Shown: one piece after another, positions 6,663 through 27,396 of the stretch | Numbering within the stretch: position 1 is the stretch's first letter | How the letters are laid out: every line of letters begins with the position of its first letter | Virus record (IMG/VR): IMGVR_UViG_2619619129_000009 | DNA length: 30,853 bases | Reading direction: 5' to 3' (one strand) | Source: a virus | Taxonomy: Duplodnaviria; Heunggongvirae; Uroviricota; Caudoviricetes | Notes under the pieces: generated by a model | Told to the model about the DNA's origin: nothing | The model's input: the letters and a program-made list of their open reading frames with translations, nothing else | Database searches by the model: none | Position numbers and translations under genes: made by a program

Positions 6663-7262
6663 CTATTTGTCCCGGTTGGCTAAGGGATGACACAATTTAT
6701 TTTTTGTCACGGAGGCGGGGAATTTTTTATAGAGCGTGGACAGGCCAATATCAAAAATCAGTGCCACGCGTTGACGTGATTCCCCTGCAGCCAACAACCG
6801 CCCGGCCTGCTCCCACTCACTCGCGGTGAGTTTCGGACGTCTGCCATCAATACGACCTTTAGCTCTGGCCGCTTCCAGTCCGGCGCGAGTCCGCTCGACA
6901 ATGAGTTCTCGTTCCATTTCAGCCAGGGCACCCATCACATGAAAGAAAAAACGTCCCATCGGCGTGCTGGTATCAATGGCATCCGTCAGGCTGCGAAAAT
7001 TAACGCCGCGTTCGCGCAGTTCCTCAACCAGAATGACCAGATGCCGCATACTACGCCCCAGCCTGTCCAGCTTCCAGACCACCAGAGTGTCACCTGCTGA
7101 TAATGTTCTGAGCAGTTTTTTCAGTCCCGGTCGGTCGGACTTCGTGCCGCTGATTTTATCCTCAAAAATCAGTTCACATCCTGCACACTCCAGCGCATTA
7201 CGCTGCAATTCCGTGTTCTGGTCATTTGTTGACACGCGTACATAGCCAATAAGCATGAGCAT
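6663..7262 (-). CDS. Site-specific DNA invertase, serine recombinase of the Hin/Gin/Cin/Pin family
   Basis: N-terminus LIGYVRVSTNDQN...L.RLGRS is the resolvase/invertase catalytic signature with the active-site Ser in VRVSTNDQ; C-terminal HTH; lies next to an invertible tail-fibre segment. Confidence 0.85.
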   Translation of the reverse strand: MLMLIGYVRVSTNDQNTELQRNALECAGCELIFEDKISGTKSDRPGLKKLLRTLSAGDTLVVWKLDRLGRSMRHLVILVEELRERGVNFRSLTDAIDTSTPMGRFFFHVMGALAEMERELIVERTRAGLEAARAKGRIDGRRPKLTASEWEQAGRLLAAGESRQRVALIFDIGLSTLYKKFPASVTKNKLCHPLANRDK

Positions 7263-7311
7263 CCCCCTGAATAAAAACCGGAGATGATGCCAGTTGCCCG
7301 TTATCTCTGCA

Positions 7312-7337
7312 TTTTCATAAACGTTGGTTTAGGAGAA
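7312..7337. repeat. Left 26-bp inversion crossover site (hix/gix-like)
   Basis: TTTTCATAAACGTTGGTTTAGGAGAA resembles the hix/gix pattern (...AAACC..GGTTT...); matches the reverse complement of the right site at 19 of 26 positions. Confidence 0.6.
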
Positions 7338-7682
7338 GCGGCGAAAAGGGATGTGGGCACAGGAGATAATCAGATACCGGATATGGGAGCATTCGCTTCT
7401 GGTTCGGGATGGTTCAGGCTACCAGGTGGATATATTGTTCAGTTTGGCACTTTTTCAGGAAACACGACCCGCTTTATCAGTGGACACTTCCCTATACCAT
7501 TCCCTAATCAGCCGATGGTTTCAGTCAGTGTTATGTCTGATGCCGTTCAGTCAGACCCGTCGAATCCTGCCCAGCAGGTTTTGTCTGTAAATTTTGAACA
7601 TATCAGTAATTCAGCGTGGCGTGTGGCAACCAGTGATATCTCACAGCAATACAGATTCAGTTATATTTCGATAGGACGGTAG
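7338..7682 (+). CDS. Alternative tail-fibre C-terminal module (Sv'-like), silent in this orientation; expressed only after inversion fuses it to the constant part of H
   Basis: Open frame continuing from the left crossover site; shares the L-G-E codons at the crossover with H; followed by its own assembly chaperone. Confidence 0.55.
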   Translation, partial: AAKRDVGTGDNQIPDMGAFASGSGWFRLPGGYIVQFGTFSGNTTRFISGHFPIPFPNQPMVSVSVMSDAVQSDPSNPAQQVLSVNFEHISNSAWRVATSDISQQYRFSYISIGR

Positions 7683-7684
7683 AA

Positions 7685-8125
7685 ATGCAGAAATATATTT
7701 TCAGTGCCGATAAAAATGCGTTTTTCCCTGTGGAGCTTAAAATCGCTTATCAGGAATCCGGCGAATGGCCCGATGATGGAATCGAAATTGACGACACTGT
7801 TGCCGCCGAATTTATGAAGGAAGCACCAGAAGGAAAATACAGAGGTGTCATCGACGGAATGCCAGCATGGATTGATATTCCACCGCCAACTCATGAGGAA
7901 CAAATTGCCGCAGCCGAACTGGAAAAGCAGCAATTGATTAATCAGGTCAACGAATACATAAACAGTAAGCAATGGCCTGGTAAAGCGGCGATTGGTCGCC
8001 TGAAAGGTGAGGAACTGGCGCAATATAATTTGTGGCTGGATTATCTGGACGCACTGGAGCTGGTCGATACTTCCGGTGCGCCAGATATTGAATGGCCTAC
8101 GCCTCCGGCAGTTCAGGCCAGATGA
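7685..8125 (+). CDS. Tail fibre assembly protein (Tfa/U'-like), partner of the alternative fibre module
   Basis: 146-aa ORF whose C-terminus (WLDYLDALELVDTSGAPDIEWPTPP) parallels the C-terminus of the opposite-strand Tfa (VLDYIDAVTATDTSTAPDVIWPELP). Confidence 0.75.
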   Translation: MQKYIFSADKNAFFPVELKIAYQESGEWPDDGIEIDDTVAAEFMKEAPEGKYRGVIDGMPAWIDIPPPTHEEQIAAAELEKQQLINQVNEYINSKQWPGKAAIGRLKGEELAQYNLWLDYLDALELVDTSGAPDIEWPTPPAVQAR

Positions 8126-8699
8126 CGTCCGGCGCTGTGCTGGTATCTGTTGCCGTCACCGCGTCAATATAATCCAGCACAGCGTTAAGTCGGGTGTTTT
8201 CTGGCTGCGTCAGCTTCCGCCCGGCCTGTAATTTCAGTTGAATCAGACTGATGGAAGCCATTGCAGCATCAATCAGCGACTGGCGCTGTGCTTCTGCCGC
8301 TTCTACTGCGGCGCTATGCTGTGCCTCGGTATCCGTCACCCATTTCTCACCATCCCATTTATCGTATGGCGTTAATGGGGCGATAGTGGTTGTATTTTCA
8401 GGGTAATCACCCGGAACTGTGATTTCTTTGGTATCTCCCGTTTCGGTACTATAGACAACTTCACCGCGATGGTCTGGCACATATTCCCATGAATTTAAAT
8501 CTACAGAGCGACAGATTGCATAACCAGCTTTATGTGTACCTGGTGCATCCAAACAGGAACATGCCGGGATACCGACGCCGACAGCGAGATATTCAGTTGA
8601 TGTAGAAATATATTCCCGCGTTTCGCCATCATAGTTATGTACGATGATTTCCCCATCATTTAAAGCGTAACCGTCTTTTCCCAAAATAGCCTGTTCCAT
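8097..8699 (-). CDS. G: Tail fibre assembly protein G (Tfa), 200 aa
   Basis: Immediately downstream of H on the same strand; conserved Tfa C-terminal motif. Confidence 0.8.
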   Translation of the reverse strand: MEQAILGKDGYALNDGEIIVHNYDGETREYISTSTEYLAVGVGIPACSCLDAPGTHKAGYAICRSVDLNSWEYVPDHRGEVVYSTETGDTKEITVPGDYPENTTTIAPLTPYDKWDGEKWVTDTEAQHSAAVEAAEAQRQSLIDAAMASISLIQLKLQAGRKLTQPENTRLNAVLDYIDAVTATDTSTAPDVIWPELPEA

Positions 8700-18913: not shown

Positions 18914-20686
18914 ATGACCATCACCACAGACACCACTCTTTTACACGACCCGCGTCGTCAGGCGGCGCTGCTGTACTGGCAGGGGTTTTCCGTGCCGCAG
19001 ATTGCCGCCATGTTGCAGATGAAACGCCCGACGGTGCAGAGCTGGAAACAGCGCGACGGCTGGGACAGCGTTGCCCCCATCAGCCGTGTCGAAATGAGTC
19101 TGGAAGCGCGGCTGACCCAGCTCATCATCAAACCGCAGAAAACCGGCGGGGACTTCAAGGAAATTGACCTGCTGGGACGCCAGATTGAACGACTGGCACG
19201 GGTCAACCGTTACAGCCAGACCGGCAACGAGGCAGACCTTAATCCGAACGTCGCTAACCGCAACAAAGGCGAACGCCGCAAACCGAAAAAGAATTTTTTC
19301 AGTGACGAGGCCATCGAAAAGCTGGAGCAGATTTTCTTTGAGCAGTCTTTCGAATATCAGTTGCACTGGTATCGCGCCGGGCTTGAGCACCGCATCCGCG
19401 ATATCCTGAAATCCCGCCAGATTGGCGCGACGTTTTATTTTTCCCGCGAGGCGCTGCTGCGCGCCCTGAAAACCGGTCATAACCAGATTTTTCTGTCGGC
19501 CAGTAAAACGCAGGCGTATGTGTTCCGCGAATACATCATCGCCTTTGCCCGGCTGGTTGACGTTGACCTGACCGGTGACCCGATTGTCCTGGGCAATAAC
19601 GGCGCAAAACTGATTTTTCTCGGCACCAACTCCAACACCGCGCAGAGCCATAACGGCGACCTGTACGTCGACGAGATTTTCTGGATCCCGAATTTTCAGG
19701 TACTGCGTAAGGTGGCATCAGGTATGGCCTCACAGAGTCACCTGCGTTCGACCTATTTCTCCACCCCGTCCACGCTGGCGCACGACGCCTACCCGTTCTG
19801 GTCGGGTGAACTGTTCAACCGGGGACGCGCCAGCGCCGCCGAACGCGTGGAAATCGACGTCAGTCATAACGCCCTTGCCGGTGGGCTTCTCTGTGCAGAC
19901 GGCCAGTGGCGGCAGATTGTCACCATTGAGGACGCGTTGAAAGGCGGCTGCACGCTGTTCGACATTGAGCAGCTCAAACGTGAAAACAGCGCCGACGATT
20001 TTAAAAACCTGTTCATGTGTGAATTTGTTGACGACAAGGCGTCGGTGTTCCCGTTCGAGGAGCTGCAACGCTGCATGGTCGACACGCTGGAAGAATGGGA
20101 AGACTATGCGCCGTTTGCCGCGAATCCGTTCGGCTCCCGCCCGGTATGGATTGGTTACGACCCGTCACACCGTGGCGACAGCGCCGGATGCGTGGTACTG
20201 GCACCGCCGGTGGTGGCCGGTGGCAAATTCAGAATACTTGAGCGTCACCAGTGGAAAGGCATGGACTTTGCCACTCAGGCGGAATCCATCCGCAAACTCA
20301 CCGAAAAATACAACGTCGAATACATCGGTATTGATGCCACCGGCCTCGGTGTCGGCGTGTTCCAGCTCGTGCGCTCGTTCTATCCCGCCGCGCGTGATAT
20401 CCGCTACACGCCGGAAATGAAAACCGCAATGGTGCTCAAGGCAAAAGACGTTATCCGCCGTGGCTGTCTGGAATACGACGTCAGCGCCACCGACATCACC
20501 AGCTCGTTTATGGCTATCCGCAAGACCATGACCAGCAGCGGACGCAGCGCCACCTATGAGGCCAGCCGCAGCGAGGAAGCCAGCCACGCCGACCTCGCCT
20601 GGGCGACCATGCACGCCCTGTTAAATGAGCCACTCACCGCCGGTATCAGCACCCCGCTGACATCCACCATTCTGGAGTTTTACTGA
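18914..20686 (+). CDS. P: Terminase large (ATPase) subunit P, 590 aa from Met MTITTDTT
   Basis: Trimmed ORF gives the P2 gpP length; upstream of Q on the same strand. Confidence 0.85.
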   Translation: MTITTDTTLLHDPRRQAALLYWQGFSVPQIAAMLQMKRPTVQSWKQRDGWDSVAPISRVEMSLEARLTQLIIKPQKTGGDFKEIDLLGRQIERLARVNRYSQTGNEADLNPNVANRNKGERRKPKKNFFSDEAIEKLEQIFFEQSFEYQLHWYRAGLEHRIRDILKSRQIGATFYFSREALLRALKTGHNQIFLSASKTQAYVFREYIIAFARLVDVDLTGDPIVLGNNGAKLIFLGTNSNTAQSHNGDLYVDEIFWIPNFQVLRKVASGMASQSHLRSTYFSTPSTLAHDAYPFWSGELFNRGRASAAERVEIDVSHNALAGGLLCADGQWRQIVTIEDALKGGCTLFDIEQLKRENSADDFKNLFMCEFVDDKASVFPFEELQRCMVDTLEEWEDYAPFAANPFGSRPVWIGYDPSHRGDSAGCVVLAPPVVAGGKFRILERHQWKGMDFATQAESIRKLTEKYNVEYIGIDATGLGVGVFQLVRSFYPAARDIRYTPEMKTAMVLKAKDVIRRGCLEYDVSATDITSSFMAIRKTMTSSGRSATYEASRSEEASHADLAWATMHALLNEPLTAGISTPLTSTILEFY

Positions 20687-21720
20687 TGAGCAAGAAAAAA
20701 GGGAAAACACCGCAACCTGCGGCAAAAAAAATGACCGCCAGCGCCCCGAAAATGGAGGCATTCACCTTTGGTGAGCCGGTGCCGGTACTCGACCGCCGTG
20801 ACATTCTGGATTACGTCGAGTGCATCAGTAACGGCAGATGGTATGAGCCACCGGTCAGCTTTACCGGTCTGGCAAAAAGCCTGCGTGCTGCCGTGCATCA
20901 CAGCTCACCGATTTACGTCAAACGCAATATTCTGGCCTCGACATTTATCCCGCATCCGTGGCTTTCCCAGCAGGATTTCAGCCGCTTTGTGCTGGATTTT
21001 CTGGTGTTCGGTAATGCGTTTCTGGAAAAGCGTTACAGCACCACCGGTAAGGTCATCAGACTGGAAACCTCACCGGCAAAATATCCCCGCCGTGGCGTGG
21101 AAGAGGATGTTTACTGGTGGGTGCCGTCCTTCCATGAGCCGACACCTTTCGCGCCCGGCTCCGTGTTTCACCTGCTGGAGCCGGATATTAATCAGGAGCT
21201 GTACGGTCTGCCGGAATATCTCAGCGCCCTTAACTCTGCCTGGCTGAATGAATCAGCCACGCTGTTCCGCCGCAAGTATTACGAAAACGGCGCTCATGCC
21301 GGATACATCATGTACGTCACTGATGCCGTGCAGGATCGCAACGATATCGAAATGCTCCGCGAAAACATGGTTAAGTCAAAAGGCCGCAACAACTTTAAAA
21401 ACCTGTTTCTCTATGCCCCACAGGGAAAAGCCGACGGCATTAAAATTATCCCGCTCAGTGAAGTGGCGACGAAGGACGATTTTTTTAATATCAAAAAAGC
21501 CAGTGCCGCAGACCTGCTGGACGCGCACCGCATCCCCTTTCAGTTGATGGGCGGCAAGCCGGAGAACGTCGGGTCGCTGGGTGATATTGAGAAAGTGGCA
21601 AAGGTCTTTGTCCGCAATGAGCTTATCCCGTTACAGGACAGGATCCGCGAGATAAACGGCTGGCTCGGTCAGGAGGTCATCCGCTTTAAAAACTACTCAC
21701 TGGACACTGACAACGGCTGA
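20686..21720 (+). CDS. Q: Portal protein Q, 344 aa
   Basis: 344-aa ORF, matching P2 gpQ length; start overlaps the P stop; next to cos. Confidence 0.9.
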   Translation: MSKKKGKTPQPAAKKMTASAPKMEAFTFGEPVPVLDRRDILDYVECISNGRWYEPPVSFTGLAKSLRAAVHHSSPIYVKRNILASTFIPHPWLSQQDFSRFVLDFLVFGNAFLEKRYSTTGKVIRLETSPAKYPRRGVEEDVYWWVPSFHEPTPFAPGSVFHLLEPDINQELYGLPEYLSALNSAWLNESATLFRRKYYENGAHAGYIMYVTDAVQDRNDIEMLRENMVKSKGRNNFKNLFLYAPQGKADGIKIIPLSEVATKDDFFNIKKASAADLLDAHRIPFQLMGGKPENVGSLGDIEKVAKVFVRNELIPLQDRIREINGWLGQEVIRFKNYSLDTDNG

Positions 21721-21889: not shown

Positions 21890-21908
21890 GTGCTTTCCCC
21901 GCCTCGCC
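21890..21908 (-). other. cos: cos cohesive-end sequence
   Basis: Plus strand GTGCTTTCCCCGCCTCGCC is the reverse complement of GGCGAGGCGGGGAAAGCAC, which I recall as the 19-nt P2/186 cohesive end; lies beside Q as expected. Confidence 0.6.
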
Positions 21909-22093
21909 CGCCCGCTTCATGGGGCGTTTTTAATGCAGTTGCATGAACACTCCAAGAGCACACCATCGCTAGTGATAACTAACAATAAAAGCGACTTCTG
22001 ACGCATGCAAATCCATGCACATGATGGCATTTTTCATGATCTATGCGGTATGCTATCCGCTTCAATTTTTAACACTTGTTAAGGGAGCTAGAC

Positions 22094-23236
22094 ATGGACA
22101 TTATTGATTTAAAATCTCAACTAGAAAATGAAGATAATGCCAAGAAAAGAGCAGAGTTGCTTGCTCAGCTAGAGGTGATAAAGCAAAACGCTGAAGAGCA
22201 AATTCGTGCTGAGCAAAAGGATGTGGATTTTGAGACCAAAGAATTTACCGTTGAGTTATTAGTTAATAAGTATCATAGCGGATTAGAGGATGATACTAAC
22301 GAACTCTTTGTTCCTGATTATCAAAGGGATTTTGTTTGGAGTGAAAAAAGACAATCAAGATTGATAGAGTCTTTGATTTTGGGTTTTCCTATACCATATA
22401 TATTTACAGCAGATGTTCTCTCCGAAGATCCCGATTTAGATGGGCGAATTGAGATTGTTGATGGCTCACAGCGAGTTAGGACTATACACGCTTTTATCCA
22501 AAATGAATTAGTTTTACAAGATCTGAAATCTTTAGACGCCCTTAATGGTTTCAAATTCCAAGATTTACCATTATCACGTCAACGTCGTTTCATGAGAATT
22601 CCTGTCCGCGTTATAGAATTGAGTTCTAAATGCAATGAAGAAACCCGTAGAGATCTTTTTGAACGTATTAACTCTGGCAGCGATATATTGAAAGATATGG
22701 AAGTCCGTAAAGGATCAGAACTTGGTTCAACAAATTTATATACACAGGTTATTAAGCCATGCTCAACAATACCTAAATTTAAAGAATTAGCCCCTTTATC
22801 TCAGACTAAAGAAAAACGAGATGAACGGTTAGAATTTACATTAAGATTCTTTGCCTACTTAGATAAGTACAAGAACTTTGATCATTCCGTACGGGATTTT
22901 CTAAATGACTATATGTTAGAAAATCGAGATATAGACGAAACTAAACAAAACTCAATGAAACAAGAGTTTGCTAATGTTCTATCTTTTGTTGATAACTATT
23001 TCCCAGCAGGATTCAAGAAAACTATTACTGCAAAATCTACACCTCGAGTTAGATTCGAATCTCTCGCTGTTGGCGCAGCACTTGCATTACGTGAAATCCC
23101 TGACCTTGTTCCCAAGAACTTGGATTGGCTAAGCTCAGAAGAATTCAAACGATTGACCACTTCAGACGGAGCTAATAGTCGCGTGAAGGTAATTGAACGA
23201 ATTGAATATGTTCGGGATAAATTATTAGAGGATTAA
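22094..23236 (+). CDS. DUF262 (ParB-like / GmrSD N-terminal domain) protein, about 380 aa; candidate defence NTPase/nicking component
   Basis: Motifs PDYQRDFVW and IVDGSQRVRT (DGQQR-like) seen in the translation; start chosen at the ATG 8 nt after an AGGGAG Shine-Dalgarno; AT-rich relative to the phage backbone. Confidence 0.7.
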   Translation: MDIIDLKSQLENEDNAKKRAELLAQLEVIKQNAEEQIRAEQKDVDFETKEFTVELLVNKYHSGLEDDTNELFVPDYQRDFVWSEKRQSRLIESLILGFPIPYIFTADVLSEDPDLDGRIEIVDGSQRVRTIHAFIQNELVLQDLKSLDALNGFKFQDLPLSRQRRFMRIPVRVIELSSKCNEETRRDLFERINSGSDILKDMEVRKGSELGSTNLYTQVIKPCSTIPKFKELAPLSQTKEKRDERLEFTLRFFAYLDKYKNFDHSVRDFLNDYMLENRDIDETKQNSMKQEFANVLSFVDNYFPAGFKKTITAKSTPRVRFESLAVGAALALREIPDLVPKNLDWLSSEEFKRLTTSDGANSRVKVIERIEYVRDKLLED

Positions 23237-23237
23237 C

Positions 23238-23918
23238 ATGGATCGTTTTCGTGAGGATTTTGACGAAAGGTCAGGAGAGATCTTGGCCTATTTAGATCTT
23301 TTGAAATTTATTGAGTATGCCGGTGCAGAACTGATATCATCTGATGATAAAGAACATAAGTTCTCCATTACTGCTCAATCACGAAAAACTCTAAAGGGGG
23401 CAGTATATATTCTATTATATAACCTCATTGAATCAACAATGAGAGAAGCTATCTGCCTTATTCATGAGACTATTTATGATAGAAACGTAGAATTTGACAA
23501 ACTCAGGAAAAATATCAGGTCAGAAATATTAAAAAGATTAAAAAATGAATCTGTAAATATTGAAAGTTTAGTTAACCGTCTTACTAAAGGTATATCTTGC
23601 GGTATATCTTATGGCACTTTCAACAAAAAGAAAATATTCTCAGGAAATATTGATAGAGAGGAAATCAAAGAAAAATCGAAAATATATGGTTTTTCAACAT
23701 ATTCTGATTACACTCACACTAAACATGGTGAAAAATTAGCCACTGTCAAACAACATCGTAATGATTTATCTCATGGCAATGTATCATTTGCTGAGATTGG
23801 AAAAAATGTTTCATATCAGGACTTAGAGAATATTTCATTAGAAGTAATCGCCTATCTTGATGCAATCGCGAATAATATAGAGCACTATATAAATAATAAT
23901 GAATATTTAGAACAATAG
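23238..23918 (+). CDS. HEPN-like putative nuclease, 226 aa, translationally coupled to the DUF262 gene
   Basis: C-terminal HRNDLSHG contains an R-x4-H HEPN-type motif; start codon 1 nt after the upstream stop with a GAGGA RBS; family assignment is from recalled pattern, not a search. Confidence 0.5.
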   Translation: MDRFREDFDERSGEILAYLDLLKFIEYAGAELISSDDKEHKFSITAQSRKTLKGAVYILLYNLIESTMREAICLIHETIYDRNVEFDKLRKNIRSEILKRLKNESVNIESLVNRLTKGISCGISYGTFNKKKIFSGNIDREEIKEKSKIYGFSTYSDYTHTKHGEKLATVKQHRNDLSHGNVSFAEIGKNVSYQDLENISLEVIAYLDAIANNIEHYINNNEYLEQ

Positions 23919-23924
23919 TAATAA

Positions 23925-23947
23925 GGCCTGCAAAGCAGGCCATTTTA
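23925..23947. terminator. Bidirectional rho-independent terminator between the convergent HEPN and methyltransferase genes
   Basis: Perfect stem ggcctgc / gcaggcc with loop aaa, flanked by T-rich runs on both strands. Confidence 0.65.
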
Positions 23948-24973
23948 TCATTCTAAATGGTTCTTGATTGATTGCCCAATTGCTTTTCCTAGTTCCACAG
24001 GAACAGCATTACCTATCATTTTCCCAATACTTCTTATAACAAACTTGTCTTTGTCTTCTACAAAGATATAATCCATCGGAAAAGTTTGCAATAAAGCAGC
24101 CTCTCTAAGAGAAATCGCTCTATGCTGTTCTGGATGTCCAAAACGTCCATTTCCGAAACCATAACAAAGAGTTGTAATTGTTGGACTCGGCTTATCCCAA
24201 GACATGCGCCCATATACACTAGCATATCCTTTACCGCTAGATTTCATATGACAAGCAGCAATCAGCTCCTTCGGCCAGTCCTTCCATGTACCACCAGGAA
24301 CAGAGTGTATAATTCTTTTTTTATTAATCGGATTTAATTTACTGGCTCTATGTAATATATCATTTGGATCTGTTTGGCCATCTTCTAACGGAGGAAGATT
24401 TCCTATTGCATCTCTAACTGTTTTCAAAATAACATCGTCACGTTTTACTAACTCAATCGCCCCCAATTTTGAAGCCAACAATACATGACGGGAACGGTTT
24501 TGTGGGATTCCATATTCGACACAATCAACCTTCGACGCCCAAACATAATAGCCCAACTTTAACAATGAATTATAAAAATCATTATAAACTTTATGTTTAG
24601 TTACATCAGGAACGTTCTCCATTGTTACGATTTCTGGAGATACTTCGCGAATTAAACGTTCGAACTCATAAAGAAGAGGCCATTTTTTATCATCAGCCTT
24701 ATCTTTTCCTTGAGTATATTTTGAAAAAGGTTGGCAAGGTGCGCATCCTGCCAATACTTTTACAGACGCATCACCATAAAGCCTCAGCAGTTCCTCTTTT
24801 GTTACTTTAGCGATATCTTGCTCAATAAACTTAGATTTATTGTTTCTTTCATAGGGAAACCGACATTCCCCCTCAAGGTCTATGCCTGCAACGACATCAA
24901 GCCCCGCAAGCTGTAAACCATGAGTTAATCCGCCAGCACCACAAAAAAGGTCTATCACCTTTACAGTCATCAT
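23948..24973 (-). CDS. DNA (cytosine-5)-methyltransferase, 341 aa
   Basis: Motif I DLFCGAGG, motif IV GCAPCQPFS (catalytic Pro-Cys), motif VI ENV (TMENVPD) seen in the translation. Confidence 0.85.
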   Translation of the reverse strand: MMTVKVIDLFCGAGGLTHGLQLAGLDVVAGIDLEGECRFPYERNNKSKFIEQDIAKVTKEELLRLYGDASVKVLAGCAPCQPFSKYTQGKDKADDKKWPLLYEFERLIREVSPEIVTMENVPDVTKHKVYNDFYNSLLKLGYYVWASKVDCVEYGIPQNRSRHVLLASKLGAIELVKRDDVILKTVRDAIGNLPPLEDGQTDPNDILHRASKLNPINKKRIIHSVPGGTWKDWPKELIAACHMKSSGKGYASVYGRMSWDKPSPTITTLCYGFGNGRFGHPEQHRAISLREAALLQTFPMDYIFVEDKDKFVIRSIGKMIGNAVPVELGKAIGQSIKNHLE

Positions 24974-25056
24974 TCACTCCAAATCTATACGATGCTCAGT
25001 ATACATCCCTTTCTACAAAATCTCGAGGCCTAACTTATAAACTCCTATTGATTGAG

Positions 25057-27396
25057 TTAACGCTTCACTGAGTTTGACTCTAATACTGTTGAGAATCCCG
25101 GCCACTCATCAGCGACCTGATAAGTAAAATGTTTCCCGTCATAATTTACGGTCGCCCCACGCGCCAGCGCCTCAAGCTCCCATCGCTGCGGCCTGATACC
25201 GTTCTGAGCGAGGTCAACGCGGATACGGGTAATTTGCATTCGTTCCGACCGGGTCAGTCTGGCCGATGGTGCCATTTCATACTGTTTTAACGGGCTTCCG
25301 TTTCTCTGCTGACGATTTGGTGTTCTCAGCCCGTGTTTTAATGCGCCCCTGAGCGCCCTCACGACCTCCGGGTCATTCCATTCGATAACACCGTCATCAA
25401 CCAGATTAAGCACTGCTGCGGCGTGCTCAGAAGGCGTGGGAGCCGGTAACGAAGTATCACCGCTGGTGAGCTTTCCACAGTTATTGACAGGACTCCGAGG
25501 CGCGGCGATGCCGCTTTTTAAAGTCAAAGGCTCAACGACCGGAACTTTCGGCACAATGCGCCAGTCCGTCGTTCTGGTGATATGAATATGACGCGCGCCG
25601 AGATGCGGCGCGTAAATGCCGACCACTCTCTCGACCTCTTCCTCGTACTCGTTAACGTCATCCGACAGACTACGGGCGACCCTGACAGTCTGACAATCGC
25701 GCGGGACATTTGCCCCACCCTGCGCGCTGATATACAGCGCAAAATCACCACTGTCTGCGGCGGCGCGTGCAGCCTCGACGCGCTCGTCAAACTCATCAGC
25801 AATGCTGACGCCGCGAGGCAATTTGCGTAGTTCACGGTAAGCCCCCATTGTCGGCAGGCCAACCGTTTTAAATTGCGGAATGCGCCACGTTGACGCCCAT
25901 GCGGTAACAGCCGCTGCAGTGTCTTTCAGCGGCCTGCCGGTGTCGTTATCGAGCTGACCATCCAGTGCATAGCCGTCGATGTTTTTTGAAATGTATTTCG
26001 CGATATATCCCGCAGCACCGCCCCGGTTAAGGTGTTTTGCCTGAAAACGGTTTCGCGCGGCTCCTCTTTCGTCGCCATCCTCTTTGAGCGCATAGCGACG
26101 CATGATTTCGATAATCTGGTTACGCTGGCGTGGATGACAAAAAAGCATCATATGCCAGTGCGGCGTTCCGTCGTGGTGTGGCTCGACGACTCGCAAACCG
26201 TAGACCTGTAAATCATTATCCTTGAATGCCGTGCGCATCAGGCTCCAGATACGGCAGAGATAACGCTGCGCATCCTTTGGATTAAATGCCTCATCGTTCC
26301 AGCCGTGATTAAGCTGAACGGTTTTACTTTCGCCTTTTCCGACCTGACGTGTCGGGTGATACTTTGACGGCGCGGTCAGCGTGATAAACATCCCCACATC
26401 ACCCTCTGCGGCGGCGTAACGCTCAATACCGGCAATGGTGTTCATCAGCTCCATCCGGCGAATTTCAGGATTAGAAATACTGCCCATCACCTTACTGATA
26501 AGGTCGATGCGCTCGCCGGTTTCCCTGTTTTCAAGGTCACACGATTTAAGAAATTCCAGATTTGCCTGGCGGCGCGCACGCACATCACGAATGGCGTGTT
26601 TACTGGCATAAGGAGAACGGTCTTTATTGACCTCCCCGACAGCTATCAGTAACGCCTCATGCCAGCGCATACGCTGGCCTTTAAGCTGATGAGTCCACCA
26701 CTCATCGTTAAACAGGCGGGCAATGGCAGAATATGCCTGCCTCGTGGTCATCTGTCCTTTACGGTATTTTTTCCAGTAGAGCGGGGAAATATTGAAAGCA
26801 CGTGCAGCGCCAGCAACATGACCATACAGGTGAGCCTGCGCCTCATCCGTAAACAGCGATTCTTTTTCACCATGCGCATCCACCCATGCATCGCAGAGTT
26901 CCTCATACATCATGAAAAGCTGCGATGAGATACGGGCGGCAAACTTTTTCAGCTCCTTGTCATTCATTCCCGGCAGGCGCGCATAGTGGTCACGCTCTGC
27001 CAGAAACAGCAACGACGCGTCGGTGTTCATTTCATGGCGCTGATTCACACGCTCAATGCGCGGCCATAAACGACGCTGAAAAGTAGATGTGAGGAAATAA
27101 AACCCGTGCACCGGGCTTTTATTGCGCCGGATGTAGTCATAGCGTGAAGTAAACAGCGAGCGCAAAAAGTAAGGCAGGCGGTTAATCGTGGATAAAACAC
27201 CTTGCACCTGACGCATCTCGTCACGTGTAAGAGGTCTTTCGCGCCCGACAGCCTCGCGTGGCGCGTTCCATGCATAAGCACCGGTAAACGCCTTACCGGT
27301 GCCTGCGGCAAATGCTGACGGAGGGACAAAACGCCCGGAGGCTTTAACGGCCATATGAGCCAAAAGCCTCTGAACAACGCCTGCTGAGTTGCTCAA
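25057..27396 (-). CDS. A: Replication initiator A (rolling-circle HUH endonuclease); 779-aa ORF, true start possibly the internal Met at 27354
   Basis: HUH motif (PHWHMMLF) and tyrosine motif (YIAKYISKN) seen; size and position match P2 gpA. Confidence 0.85.
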   Translation of the reverse strand: MSNSAGVVQRLLAHMAVKASGRFVPPSAFAAGTGKAFTGAYAWNAPREAVGRERPLTRDEMRQVQGVLSTINRLPYFLRSLFTSRYDYIRRNKSPVHGFYFLTSTFQRRLWPRIERVNQRHEMNTDASLLFLAERDHYARLPGMNDKELKKFAARISSQLFMMYEELCDAWVDAHGEKESLFTDEAQAHLYGHVAGAARAFNISPLYWKKYRKGQMTTRQAYSAIARLFNDEWWTHQLKGQRMRWHEALLIAVGEVNKDRSPYASKHAIRDVRARRQANLEFLKSCDLENRETGERIDLISKVMGSISNPEIRRMELMNTIAGIERYAAAEGDVGMFITLTAPSKYHPTRQVGKGESKTVQLNHGWNDEAFNPKDAQRYLCRIWSLMRTAFKDNDLQVYGLRVVEPHHDGTPHWHMMLFCHPRQRNQIIEIMRRYALKEDGDERGAARNRFQAKHLNRGGAAGYIAKYISKNIDGYALDGQLDNDTGRPLKDTAAAVTAWASTWRIPQFKTVGLPTMGAYRELRKLPRGVSIADEFDERVEAARAAADSGDFALYISAQGGANVPRDCQTVRVARSLSDDVNEYEEEVERVVGIYAPHLGARHIHITRTTDWRIVPKVPVVEPLTLKSGIAAPRSPVNNCGKLTSGDTSLPAPTPSEHAAAVLNLVDDGVIEWNDPEVVRALRGALKHGLRTPNRQQRNGSPLKQYEMAPSARLTRSERMQITRIRVDLAQNGIRPQRWELEALARGATVNYDGKHFTYQVADEWPGFSTVLESNSVKR

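Follow-up and report, generated by a model that had tools for sequence, protein, structure and literature searches.

A 30,853-nt stretch of viral DNA (IMG/VR record IMGVR_UViG_2619619129_000009, Caudoviricetes; the whole stretch is hereafter called the window) carries, between the cos site and replication gene A of a P2-like prophage, an intact and horizontally acquired cargo of defence type, in which sensor and effector genes resembling those of PD-T4-2 and NsnA are joined to a dedicated C5 DNA cytosine methyltransferase gene. The island is best explained as a self-sufficient defence cassette of three genes that is horizontally mobile and serves as lysogenic-conversion cargo in the old/tin hotspot of P2, and it is recognisable by its anatomy, its intact catalytic motifs, its foreign composition and the linkage of the three genes across phyla and types of mobile element.

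Composition and gene content of the island

An earlier sequence-only reading had placed an AT-rich accessory island of three genes, unlike old and tin, at positions 21909-25056, and these limits agree almost exactly with the space between the end of cos (21908) and the stop codon of gene A (25057). The GC content, estimated by eye at roughly 35% versus 55%, was computed as 0.363 (36.3%) for 21909-25056, versus 0.554 (55.4%) for all sequence left of cos and 0.538 (53.8%) for the gene of the replication protein gpA. In 500-nt windows, GC ranged from 0.30 to 0.39 over 22001-25000 and from 0.51 to 0.58 on either side, while GC at third codon positions (GC3) was 0.27, 0.24 and 0.28 in the three cargo genes, compared with 0.72 in the terminase, 0.64 in the portal and 0.56 in the gpA gene, and both measures mark the segment as foreign. 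Exactly three long open reading frames are present, at 22094-23236 (+), 23238-23918 (+) and 23948-24970 (−), which fall into the Pfam families GmrSD_N, HEPN_MAE_28990 and DNA_methylase, and none matched old or tin. The view that the island is horizontally acquired cargo is backed by GC, GC3, the variable slot in which it lies and its rarity, with this allele present in 9/5426 complete E. coli genomes.

Gene 1 (22094-23236, 380 aa) encodes an NsnA-like DUF262 protein (ParB/Srx-fold NTPase) with a helical C-terminal domain of ParBDB type, and the ribosome binding site AAGGGAG supports its ATG start at 22094 over a TTG at 22076. Its motifs QRDFVW (Q77-W82), DGSQR (D123-R127) and FERIN (F189-N193) were invariant in 24 homologues. 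Pfam recognised GmrSD_N only, at residues 69-212, and found neither a DUF1524/HNH domain in this protein nor a DUF1524 domain anywhere in the island. The best match in a defence library was the PADLOC model for NsnA (2.1e-54, residues 17-380, full length), followed by PD-T4-2_A (5.3e-35, residues 79-377 versus positions 55-355 of the 363-residue model), and there was a weak match to the Type II restriction endonuclease (REase) model REase_II (3e-5), for which the DUF262 protein of a second allele, described below, scored 2.5e-8. The C-terminal domain matches the DNA-binding ParBDB region of NsnA and contained no identifiable metal-dependent nuclease motif, and no recognised DNase fold (PD-(D/E)xK, HNH, GIY-YIG or PLD) was found among the three proteins. 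No solved structure was related by sequence to the DUF262 or HEPN protein; the solved structures closest to gene 1 were BrxU and SspE, with weak scores and an AlphaFold2 model that was only moderate. In PHROGs, both non-methylase proteins belong to families of unknown function.

Gene 2 (23238-23918, +, 226 aa) is a predicted nuclease effector, and its sequence places it in the MAE_28990 family of HEPN proteins (PF18737, 3e-29), with the conserved Rx4-6H motif in the form R174-N-D-L-S-H179; the pattern RNDLxH was invariant over 30 homologues, down to 33% identity. The start codon lies 1 nt past the stop codon of gene 1, which indicates translational coupling. Gene 2 matched no PADLOC model even at E ≤ 10, as was the case for three other members of the family, and it is related to PD-T4-2B at the level of the Pfam clade only. 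Between the convergent HEPN and methylase genes lies a bidirectional intrinsic terminator (23925-23941, GGCCTGCAAAGCAGGCC), with a 7-bp stem containing 6 G-C pairs and T-runs on both strands. Within the HEPN cluster (≥90% identity), many Salmonella enterica members are "partial" fragments of 57–129 aa at contig ends, and short-read assemblies apparently often break within this 31%-GC gene. The HEPN call of one K. pneumoniae locus (L086, DAGMDY010000001.1, 8346-8828) is shortened at the N-terminus to 160 aa, with intact DUF262 and methylase genes.

Gene 3 (23948-24970, −, 340 aa, with an alternative start at 24973) encodes the C5 methyltransferase and matched PF00145 over its full length (4e-58), TIGR00675 (4e-37) and the PADLOC models DrmMII (4e-91), MTase_II (1e-88) and DruM (1e-71). 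Its catalytic motifs are complete and conserved, comprising motifs I (DLFCGAGG, 7-14), IV (PCQ, C79), VI (ENV, 118-120), VIII (QNRSR, 157-161) and X (GNAVP, 320-324), and on this basis it is predicted to be an active enzyme with the features of the methylase of a Type II restriction-modification (R-M) system. Alignment to M.HaeIII and M.HhaI is confined to the catalytic core and does not extend to the target-recognition domain (TRD), and the sequence matches in the PDB (M.HaeIII, M.HhaI and DNMT1) span the catalytic core only. Names gave no specificity, as the 8000 homologues and cluster members carry generic names only, NCBIfam assigned the dcm superfamily only, and the match to E. coli Dcm (PRK10458) was negligible. 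The DrmMII match is only a lead towards a possible CCWGG-type specificity, as reportedly described by Ofir et al. in 2018. Over all trios, the median identity of the methylase was 58% in the target-recognition region and 50% in the N-terminal catalytic core, and a TRD that is at least as conserved as the core suggests that one specificity may be shared. Upstream of the methylase gene, at 24998-25026 (−), is a σ70-like promoter match (TCGAGA-17-TATACT), which is a consensus match only, at 9/12 positions, and is covered by the nucleotide homology of the cassette, as this reaches 25033 in a Klebsiella copy and 25027 in a Tatumella copy. A promoter scan returned 12 sites versus 10.2 in shuffled sequence, and promoter assignments are therefore tentative. 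In a Pseudomonas aeruginosa locus (L095, JTSM01000020.1, 5001-7662), a Vsr gene lies between the methylase and HEPN genes, and as Vsr repairs the T:G mismatches arising from deamination of 5-methylcytosine (5mC), its presence is consistent with active 5mC formation.

Linkage of the three genes across genomes

Linkage was surveyed in 80 species-representative loci with a relative of the HEPN gene, out of 381 detected, and adjacency of the methylase was scored in the 78/80 loci that had enough flanking sequence. The DUF262 gene was located directly upstream of the HEPN gene on the same strand in 80/80 loci, and an orthologous full-length C5 methylase (51–87% identity) was found ≤140 bp away in 37/78. 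The linkage of the methylase is thus tight and evolutionarily conserved in these species-level loci as well as in all phage-borne copies. The trio is spread over Gammaproteobacteria, Cyanobacteria, Bacteroidales and Acidobacteria, with the methylase usually convergent as in the window, upstream in two Acidobacteria, and downstream on the same strand in one Bacteroidales metagenome-assembled genome, and three loci (L035, L058 and L076) have a rearranged gene order with adjacency retained.

The genomic settings of the trio are diverse. It was found in the nin region of a lambdoid prophage of Klebsiella pneumoniae (85–87% identity at the protein level; 487 index blocks), in the P2-like slot of Tatumella, beside a cI-like repressor in nine Moraxella Mcat phages, as a small islet adjoining a resolvase in Vibrio jasicida, with the added Vsr gene in a P. 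aeruginosa integrase island, and in Microcystis (L040). Nucleotide homology between the P2 and Klebsiella lambdoid copies covers the whole of 22094-25033 at 77% identity, which argues for transfer of the trio as a single block. The same P2 slot contains a second, deeply diverged allele in phage P24B2 and some E. coli prophages, with 45% identity to the window in the DUF262 protein, ~30% in the HEPN protein and 72% in the methylase. Searches that started from the methylase again found HEPN and DUF262 genes alongside. The three alleles of the cassette detected in E. coli are present in 9, 4 and 3 of the 5426 complete genomes, and the cassette is therefore rare in this species but widely distributed in prophages of Enterobacterales and outside this order.

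In a neighbour-joining tree of the DUF262 protein, the loci without a methylase formed one cyanobacterial clade, barring one pair of sister species within a methylase-bearing clade, in which the loss is recent and one member retains a methylase remnant. Both deep branches of the tree are linked to a methylase, and hence the linkage is ancestral. The sequence-only reading had named the occurrence of the same genes in non-prophage chromosomes, beside housekeeping genes, as evidence that would count against their being cargo; such loci do occur, in Vibrio and cyanobacteria, yet the cargo interpretation stands, as they reveal an autonomous mobile module and are no argument against the status of the island here. 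In eight loci from Microcoleus and other Oscillatoriales (L036, L049, L056, L061, L062, L069, L074 and L078), the gene 5′ of the HEPN gene is only ~177–265 aa long and matches the DUF262 domain only (query residues ~24-194), without the C-terminal DNA-binding half and without an adjacent methylase. As this short form recurs across several species, it may be either a stable "mini" form or a shared state of decay.

Proposed mechanism, rival explanations and known systems

On balance we favour the view that the three genes make up a single defence system dependent on the methylase, and put forward more tentatively a specific version of it, in which unmarked DNA activates an RNase. The C5 methyltransferase, expressed from its own promoter, would methylate a single, fixed short motif in the DNA of host and prophage and so provide a "self" mark, while the NsnA-like DUF262/ParBDB protein would be an NTPase that binds DNA and reads its methylation state. 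DNA without the mark, for example that of an incoming phage, would lead the DUF262 protein to switch on the co-translated MAE_28990 HEPN nuclease, and this protein would most likely cut RNA, so that phage development stops, possibly at the cost of the infected cell. The cassette might then represent an R-M system with a restriction arm that does not cut DNA, with the DUF262 protein reading 5mC at the fixed motif and licensing the HEPN RNase on unmarked DNA; it is likewise possible, though short of probable, that temperate phages of several families have spread it as a 3-kb plug-in, and that a cyanobacterial offshoot has dispensed with the dedicated methylase. The DUF262 domains of GmrSD, BrxU and SspE are NTPases that sense DNA modification and control an attached nuclease (PMC10952713, PMC12065111), and HEPN domains with Rx4-6H have been metal-independent RNases in every defence context in which they were tested (PMC3710099).

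Several observations weigh against a methylase-dependent system. Since HEPN proteins are RNases wherever tested, classical DNA-cutting restriction is not evident in the island; PADLOC v2 gave no recognition of the HEPN partner at all; and we found no experimental study of a DUF262, HEPN and methyltransferase trio in the searchable literature. The remaining objections also speak for a rather unlikely alternative, that of two independent cargos, consisting of a PD-T4-2-like pair that senses infection regardless of methylation, and an orphan methylase that either serves the phage, by shielding P2 DNA from restriction by the host or competitors or through epigenetic regulation, or is a hitch-hiker. 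The methylase gene forms a transcription unit apart from the pair, convergent to it and equipped with a promoter-like site and a terminator, and PD-T4-2 protects as a cloned 1.8-kb fragment with two genes and no methylase (PMC9519451). A large cyanobacterial clade (~40 loci) keeps an intact DUF262-HEPN pair among housekeeping neighbours with no adjacent methylase, and the methylase has been lost in Aphanizomenon (L012) and reduced to a remnant in Dolichospermum (L013), where the partner genes are full-length. In the Peduovirus P24B2 (L089, NC_049387.1, 2579-3605), the methylase is frameshifted near residue 226 with the DUF262 and HEPN genes intact; prophage copies of this allele (L091-L093) have an intact methylase of 375 aa, and the frameshift could be either a sequencing error or a tolerated loss. 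The divergence of the P24B2 allele is also discordant, as the methylase has retained far more identity (72%) than the DUF262 (45%) and HEPN (30%) proteins. Against this alternative, the methylase family recurs beside the pair in four phyla and at least five unrelated kinds of mobile context, including reordered loci. Two unconnected cargos would also not be expected to be transferred together as a 2.9-kb block with 76–77% nucleotide identity between P2-like and lambdoid phages. That searches from the methylase side came back to HEPN and DUF262 neighbours, and that the loci without methylase trace to a single clade, likewise argues for one system.

Two further readings retain a link between DNA modification and the DUF262 protein but assign the activities differently. 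By analogy with PrrC-EcoprrI, Anantharaman et al. (2013) proposed a multi-pronged arrangement, published as a hypothesis (PMC3710099), under which the ParB-like DUF262 protein would cut unmethylated DNA and hold the HEPN RNase inactive, and the RNase would be freed only upon blockage or overload of the restriction arm. The weak PADLOC matches to Type II REase, at 3e-5 here and 2.5e-8 in the second allele, would fit such an arrangement. Some ParB/Srx-fold proteins are reported to nick DNA, which also counts in its favour. GmrSD, BrxU and SspE, however, cut DNA through a DUF1524 His-Me domain that is absent here, with DUF262 acting as NTPase and sensor, and the C-terminal domain matches the NsnA ParBDB region and lacks a metal-dependent nuclease motif; we consider this arrangement unlikely. 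Very improbable is a Type IV-like system, in which the DUF262 protein, like those of GmrSD, BrxU and Dazbog, would recognise modified phage DNA (5-hydroxymethylcytosine (5hmC), glucosyl-hmC or 5mC), and the methylase would be unrelated to its action. DUF262 sensors of modified DNA are well documented, and PD-T4-2 was selected against T4, the DNA of which contains glucosyl-hmC, but permanent linkage of a 5mC sensor to a 5mC-writing enzyme would be self-destructive for the host, and conservation of both the linkage and the TRD indicates that the methylase belongs to the system.

The methylase-dependent system favoured here shares parts with several known systems without falling into any of them. 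PD-T4-2 of E. coli ECOR65, a validated anti-T4 system (Vassallo et al. 2022; PMC9519451), combines a DUF262 protein with a small HEPN protein, and resembles the island in having a DUF262 gene without DUF1524, followed by a HEPN gene of the RiboL-PSP/MAE_28990 clade, in a two-gene operon in E. coli. It differs in that its B protein has ~165 aa, compared with 226 aa for the HEPN protein here, for which PD-T4-2_B was unmatched in PADLOC, and in that its protective clone lacks the conserved adjacent C5 methylase of the present module; gene 1 also scores higher against NsnA than against PD-T4-2_A. Strict membership of PD-T4-2 was rejected because of the unmatched B component and the presence of the methylase. 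Gene 1 is of the NsnA type found in Menshen (NsnABC; Millman 2022, Li et al. 2025), with ParB-DUF262 and a C-terminal ParBDB domain, and the three NsnA motifs QRxxxW, DGxQR and FxxxN are all invariant in its family. According to Li et al., Menshen loci are often located beside methylases, and these authors raise the question of whether DUF262 may act on unmodified DNA. The NsnB ABC-ATPase (AAA_15 plus DUF3696) and the NsnC inPIN-nuclease are absent here, with the HEPN protein in the effector position, and Menshen was rejected as the island has only three genes, and neither NsnB nor NsnC.

The DUF262 NTPase fold is common to gene 1, GmrSD, BrxU and SspE, and the combination of a modification module with a DUF262 reader in SspABCD-SspE corresponds to the logic proposed here, although the mark is a phosphorothioate in the SspE system and would be 5mC in the island. 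These proteins have their own DUF1524 His-Me nuclease, whereas the nuclease here is a separate HEPN protein, which sets the cassette apart from Type IV enzymes made of one polypeptide; GmrSD/BrxU Type IV membership was rejected on the lack of DUF1524 in the island. DISARM and Druantia were also rejected, as only the methylase matched and there are no DrmA/B/C, DruE, helicase, DUF1998 or PLD genes. With regard to Type II R-M, the island has no recognised REase fold, the weak REase_II match (3e-5) being to the DUF262 region. PrrC-EcoprrI likewise couples a HEPN RNase to a methylation-based distinction of self and non-self, but PrrC is an ABC-ATPase-HEPN fusion within the Type I R-M locus hsdMSR, compared with a DUF262 partner and a monomeric C5 methylase here. 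Table 1 of Anantharaman et al. (2013; PMC3710099) records, by computation, an association between ParB, HEPN and methylase genes, and this is the same three-gene association as that described here, where the HEPN protein is a member of PF18737. It forms one line of that table, with a generic hypothesis of multi-pronged R-M plus RNase, and comes with no experiment, P2 or phage context, or linkage analysis. The sequence-only reading had suggested running defence models on the three proteins, among which PADLOC v2 saw an orphan methylase and an incomplete NsnA/PD-T4-2_A and missed the HEPN protein.

The slot, neighbouring features and significance

The island occupies the gpA-cos-portal slot of a P2-like prophage integrated beside cpxP, in agreement with the RefSeq annotation of an identical prophage; the queried segment of the window is 100% identical to the prophage of E. 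coli O169:H41 strain 2014EL-1345-2. On the left, the slot is bounded by the 19-nt cohesive-end sequence of P2 cos (21890-21908, GTGCTTTCCCCGCCTCGCC), an exact string match which we take to be the reverse complement of the P2 cohesive end, and at which the linear L-413C record terminates. It is followed by a conserved stub of P2 backbone (21909-21949, +; 95% identity to L-413C positions 1-59) that includes a terminator-like hairpin (21909-21926) and a T-run, and the slot is flanked by portal gene Q (20686-21720) and gene A (25057-27351). Homology to the L-413C backbone covers 21890-21949 and restarts at 25077, and the variable cargo therefore extends over ~21950-25076, where L-413C has a different cargo. 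At the right junction (25034-25076), gene A has cargo-linked sequence in place of its usual last codons and in translation ends in ...STVLESNSVKR* rather than the canonical ...STVMEWK* of L-413C and the GN04592 prophage, and the orf91/DUF3850 gene, present at the equivalent place in L001 and L-413C, is absent. The altered end of gene A and the absence of orf91 indicate that the cargo junction rewrote the final codons of the replication endonuclease (25057-25076).

That this is a known variable cargo site of P2-like prophages was borne out by comparison with other Peduoviruses, in which the flanks are ~95% identical and the slot contains Fic/VbhT, DUF4209, DUF4238, retron Ec48 or, in L-413C, a hypothetical protein. 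Matches in the flanks only were seen in 79 phage records, with a coverage of at most 22% and other genes in the slot. The slot corresponds to defence hotspot 1, described by several groups (Odegrip 2006, Rousset 2022, Vassallo 2022; PMC9519451, PMC9122126). It is the same locus, bounded by cos/portal on one side and by the gene for replication endonuclease A, plus or minus orf91, on the other, with conserved flanks and varying cargo, but the cargo here differs and is none of old, tin, PARIS, retron or Fic. The accessible part of the text of Rousset et al. does not mention DUF262 or methylase.

A conserved region upstream of the DUF262-HEPN operon (22001-22054, +) consists of CGCATGCAAATCCATGCACATGATGGCA, then ATGGCATT, then the −10-like TATGCT (22049-22054), and is a putative promoter, with no canonical −35 hexamer in 22001-22054. 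The element CGCATGCAnnTnnATGCACATnATnGCA precedes the ATGGCATT and TATGCT blocks 5′ of the DUF262 gene, and the upstream blocks are invariant among the P2-like, Tatumella and Klebsiella lambdoid copies. In L-413C (L083, ~110-140), an almost identical element stands ahead of an unrelated cargo gene, while the cassette of the Klebsiella lambdoid prophage is preceded by a weaker copy (L084, ~6900-6960). The element may be a promoter or operator shared within the hotspot, or a recombination handle for exchange of cargo. An Rfam scan of the island found nothing credible, with one chance miRNA match (E 0.099).

Elsewhere in the window, a Hin/Gin-type DNA invertase (6663-7262, −; PF00239, 3e-52) lies beside an oppositely oriented gene for an alternative tail-fibre C-terminus (7284-7682, +), together with a tail-fibre-assembly gene on either strand (7685-8125, +, and 8097-8699, −), and these genes (6663-8699) coincide with a GC dip to 0.45–0.50. 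This segment looks like an invertible host-range region of the Mu G or P1 C type in a P2-like prophage.

The P2 hotspot, the DUF262 plus HEPN relative PD-T4-2 and the three-gene association published in 2013 (PMC3710099) are already known, and neither the site nor the broad character of the cargo is unexpected. If the methylase is independent of the other two genes, the island would be one more ordinary cargo of the P2 hotspot. If instead it gates the DUF262-HEPN pair, the cassette would join the self-marking by methylation of R-M, BREX and Dnd/Ssp systems with the HEPN RNase effectors of PrrC, Csm6/Cas13 and toxin-antitoxin systems, two fields mostly studied apart, and the mechanism of PD-T4-2 and the NsnA sensor of Menshen would become testable in a compact, E. 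coli-native system of three genes. Current defence-finder models miss the cassette, which is found in prophages of clinically relevant E. coli, Shigella, Salmonella and Klebsiella, and the extent of prophage-borne immunity in these bacteria is consequently underestimated, with implications for phage therapy and the interpretation of methylomes.

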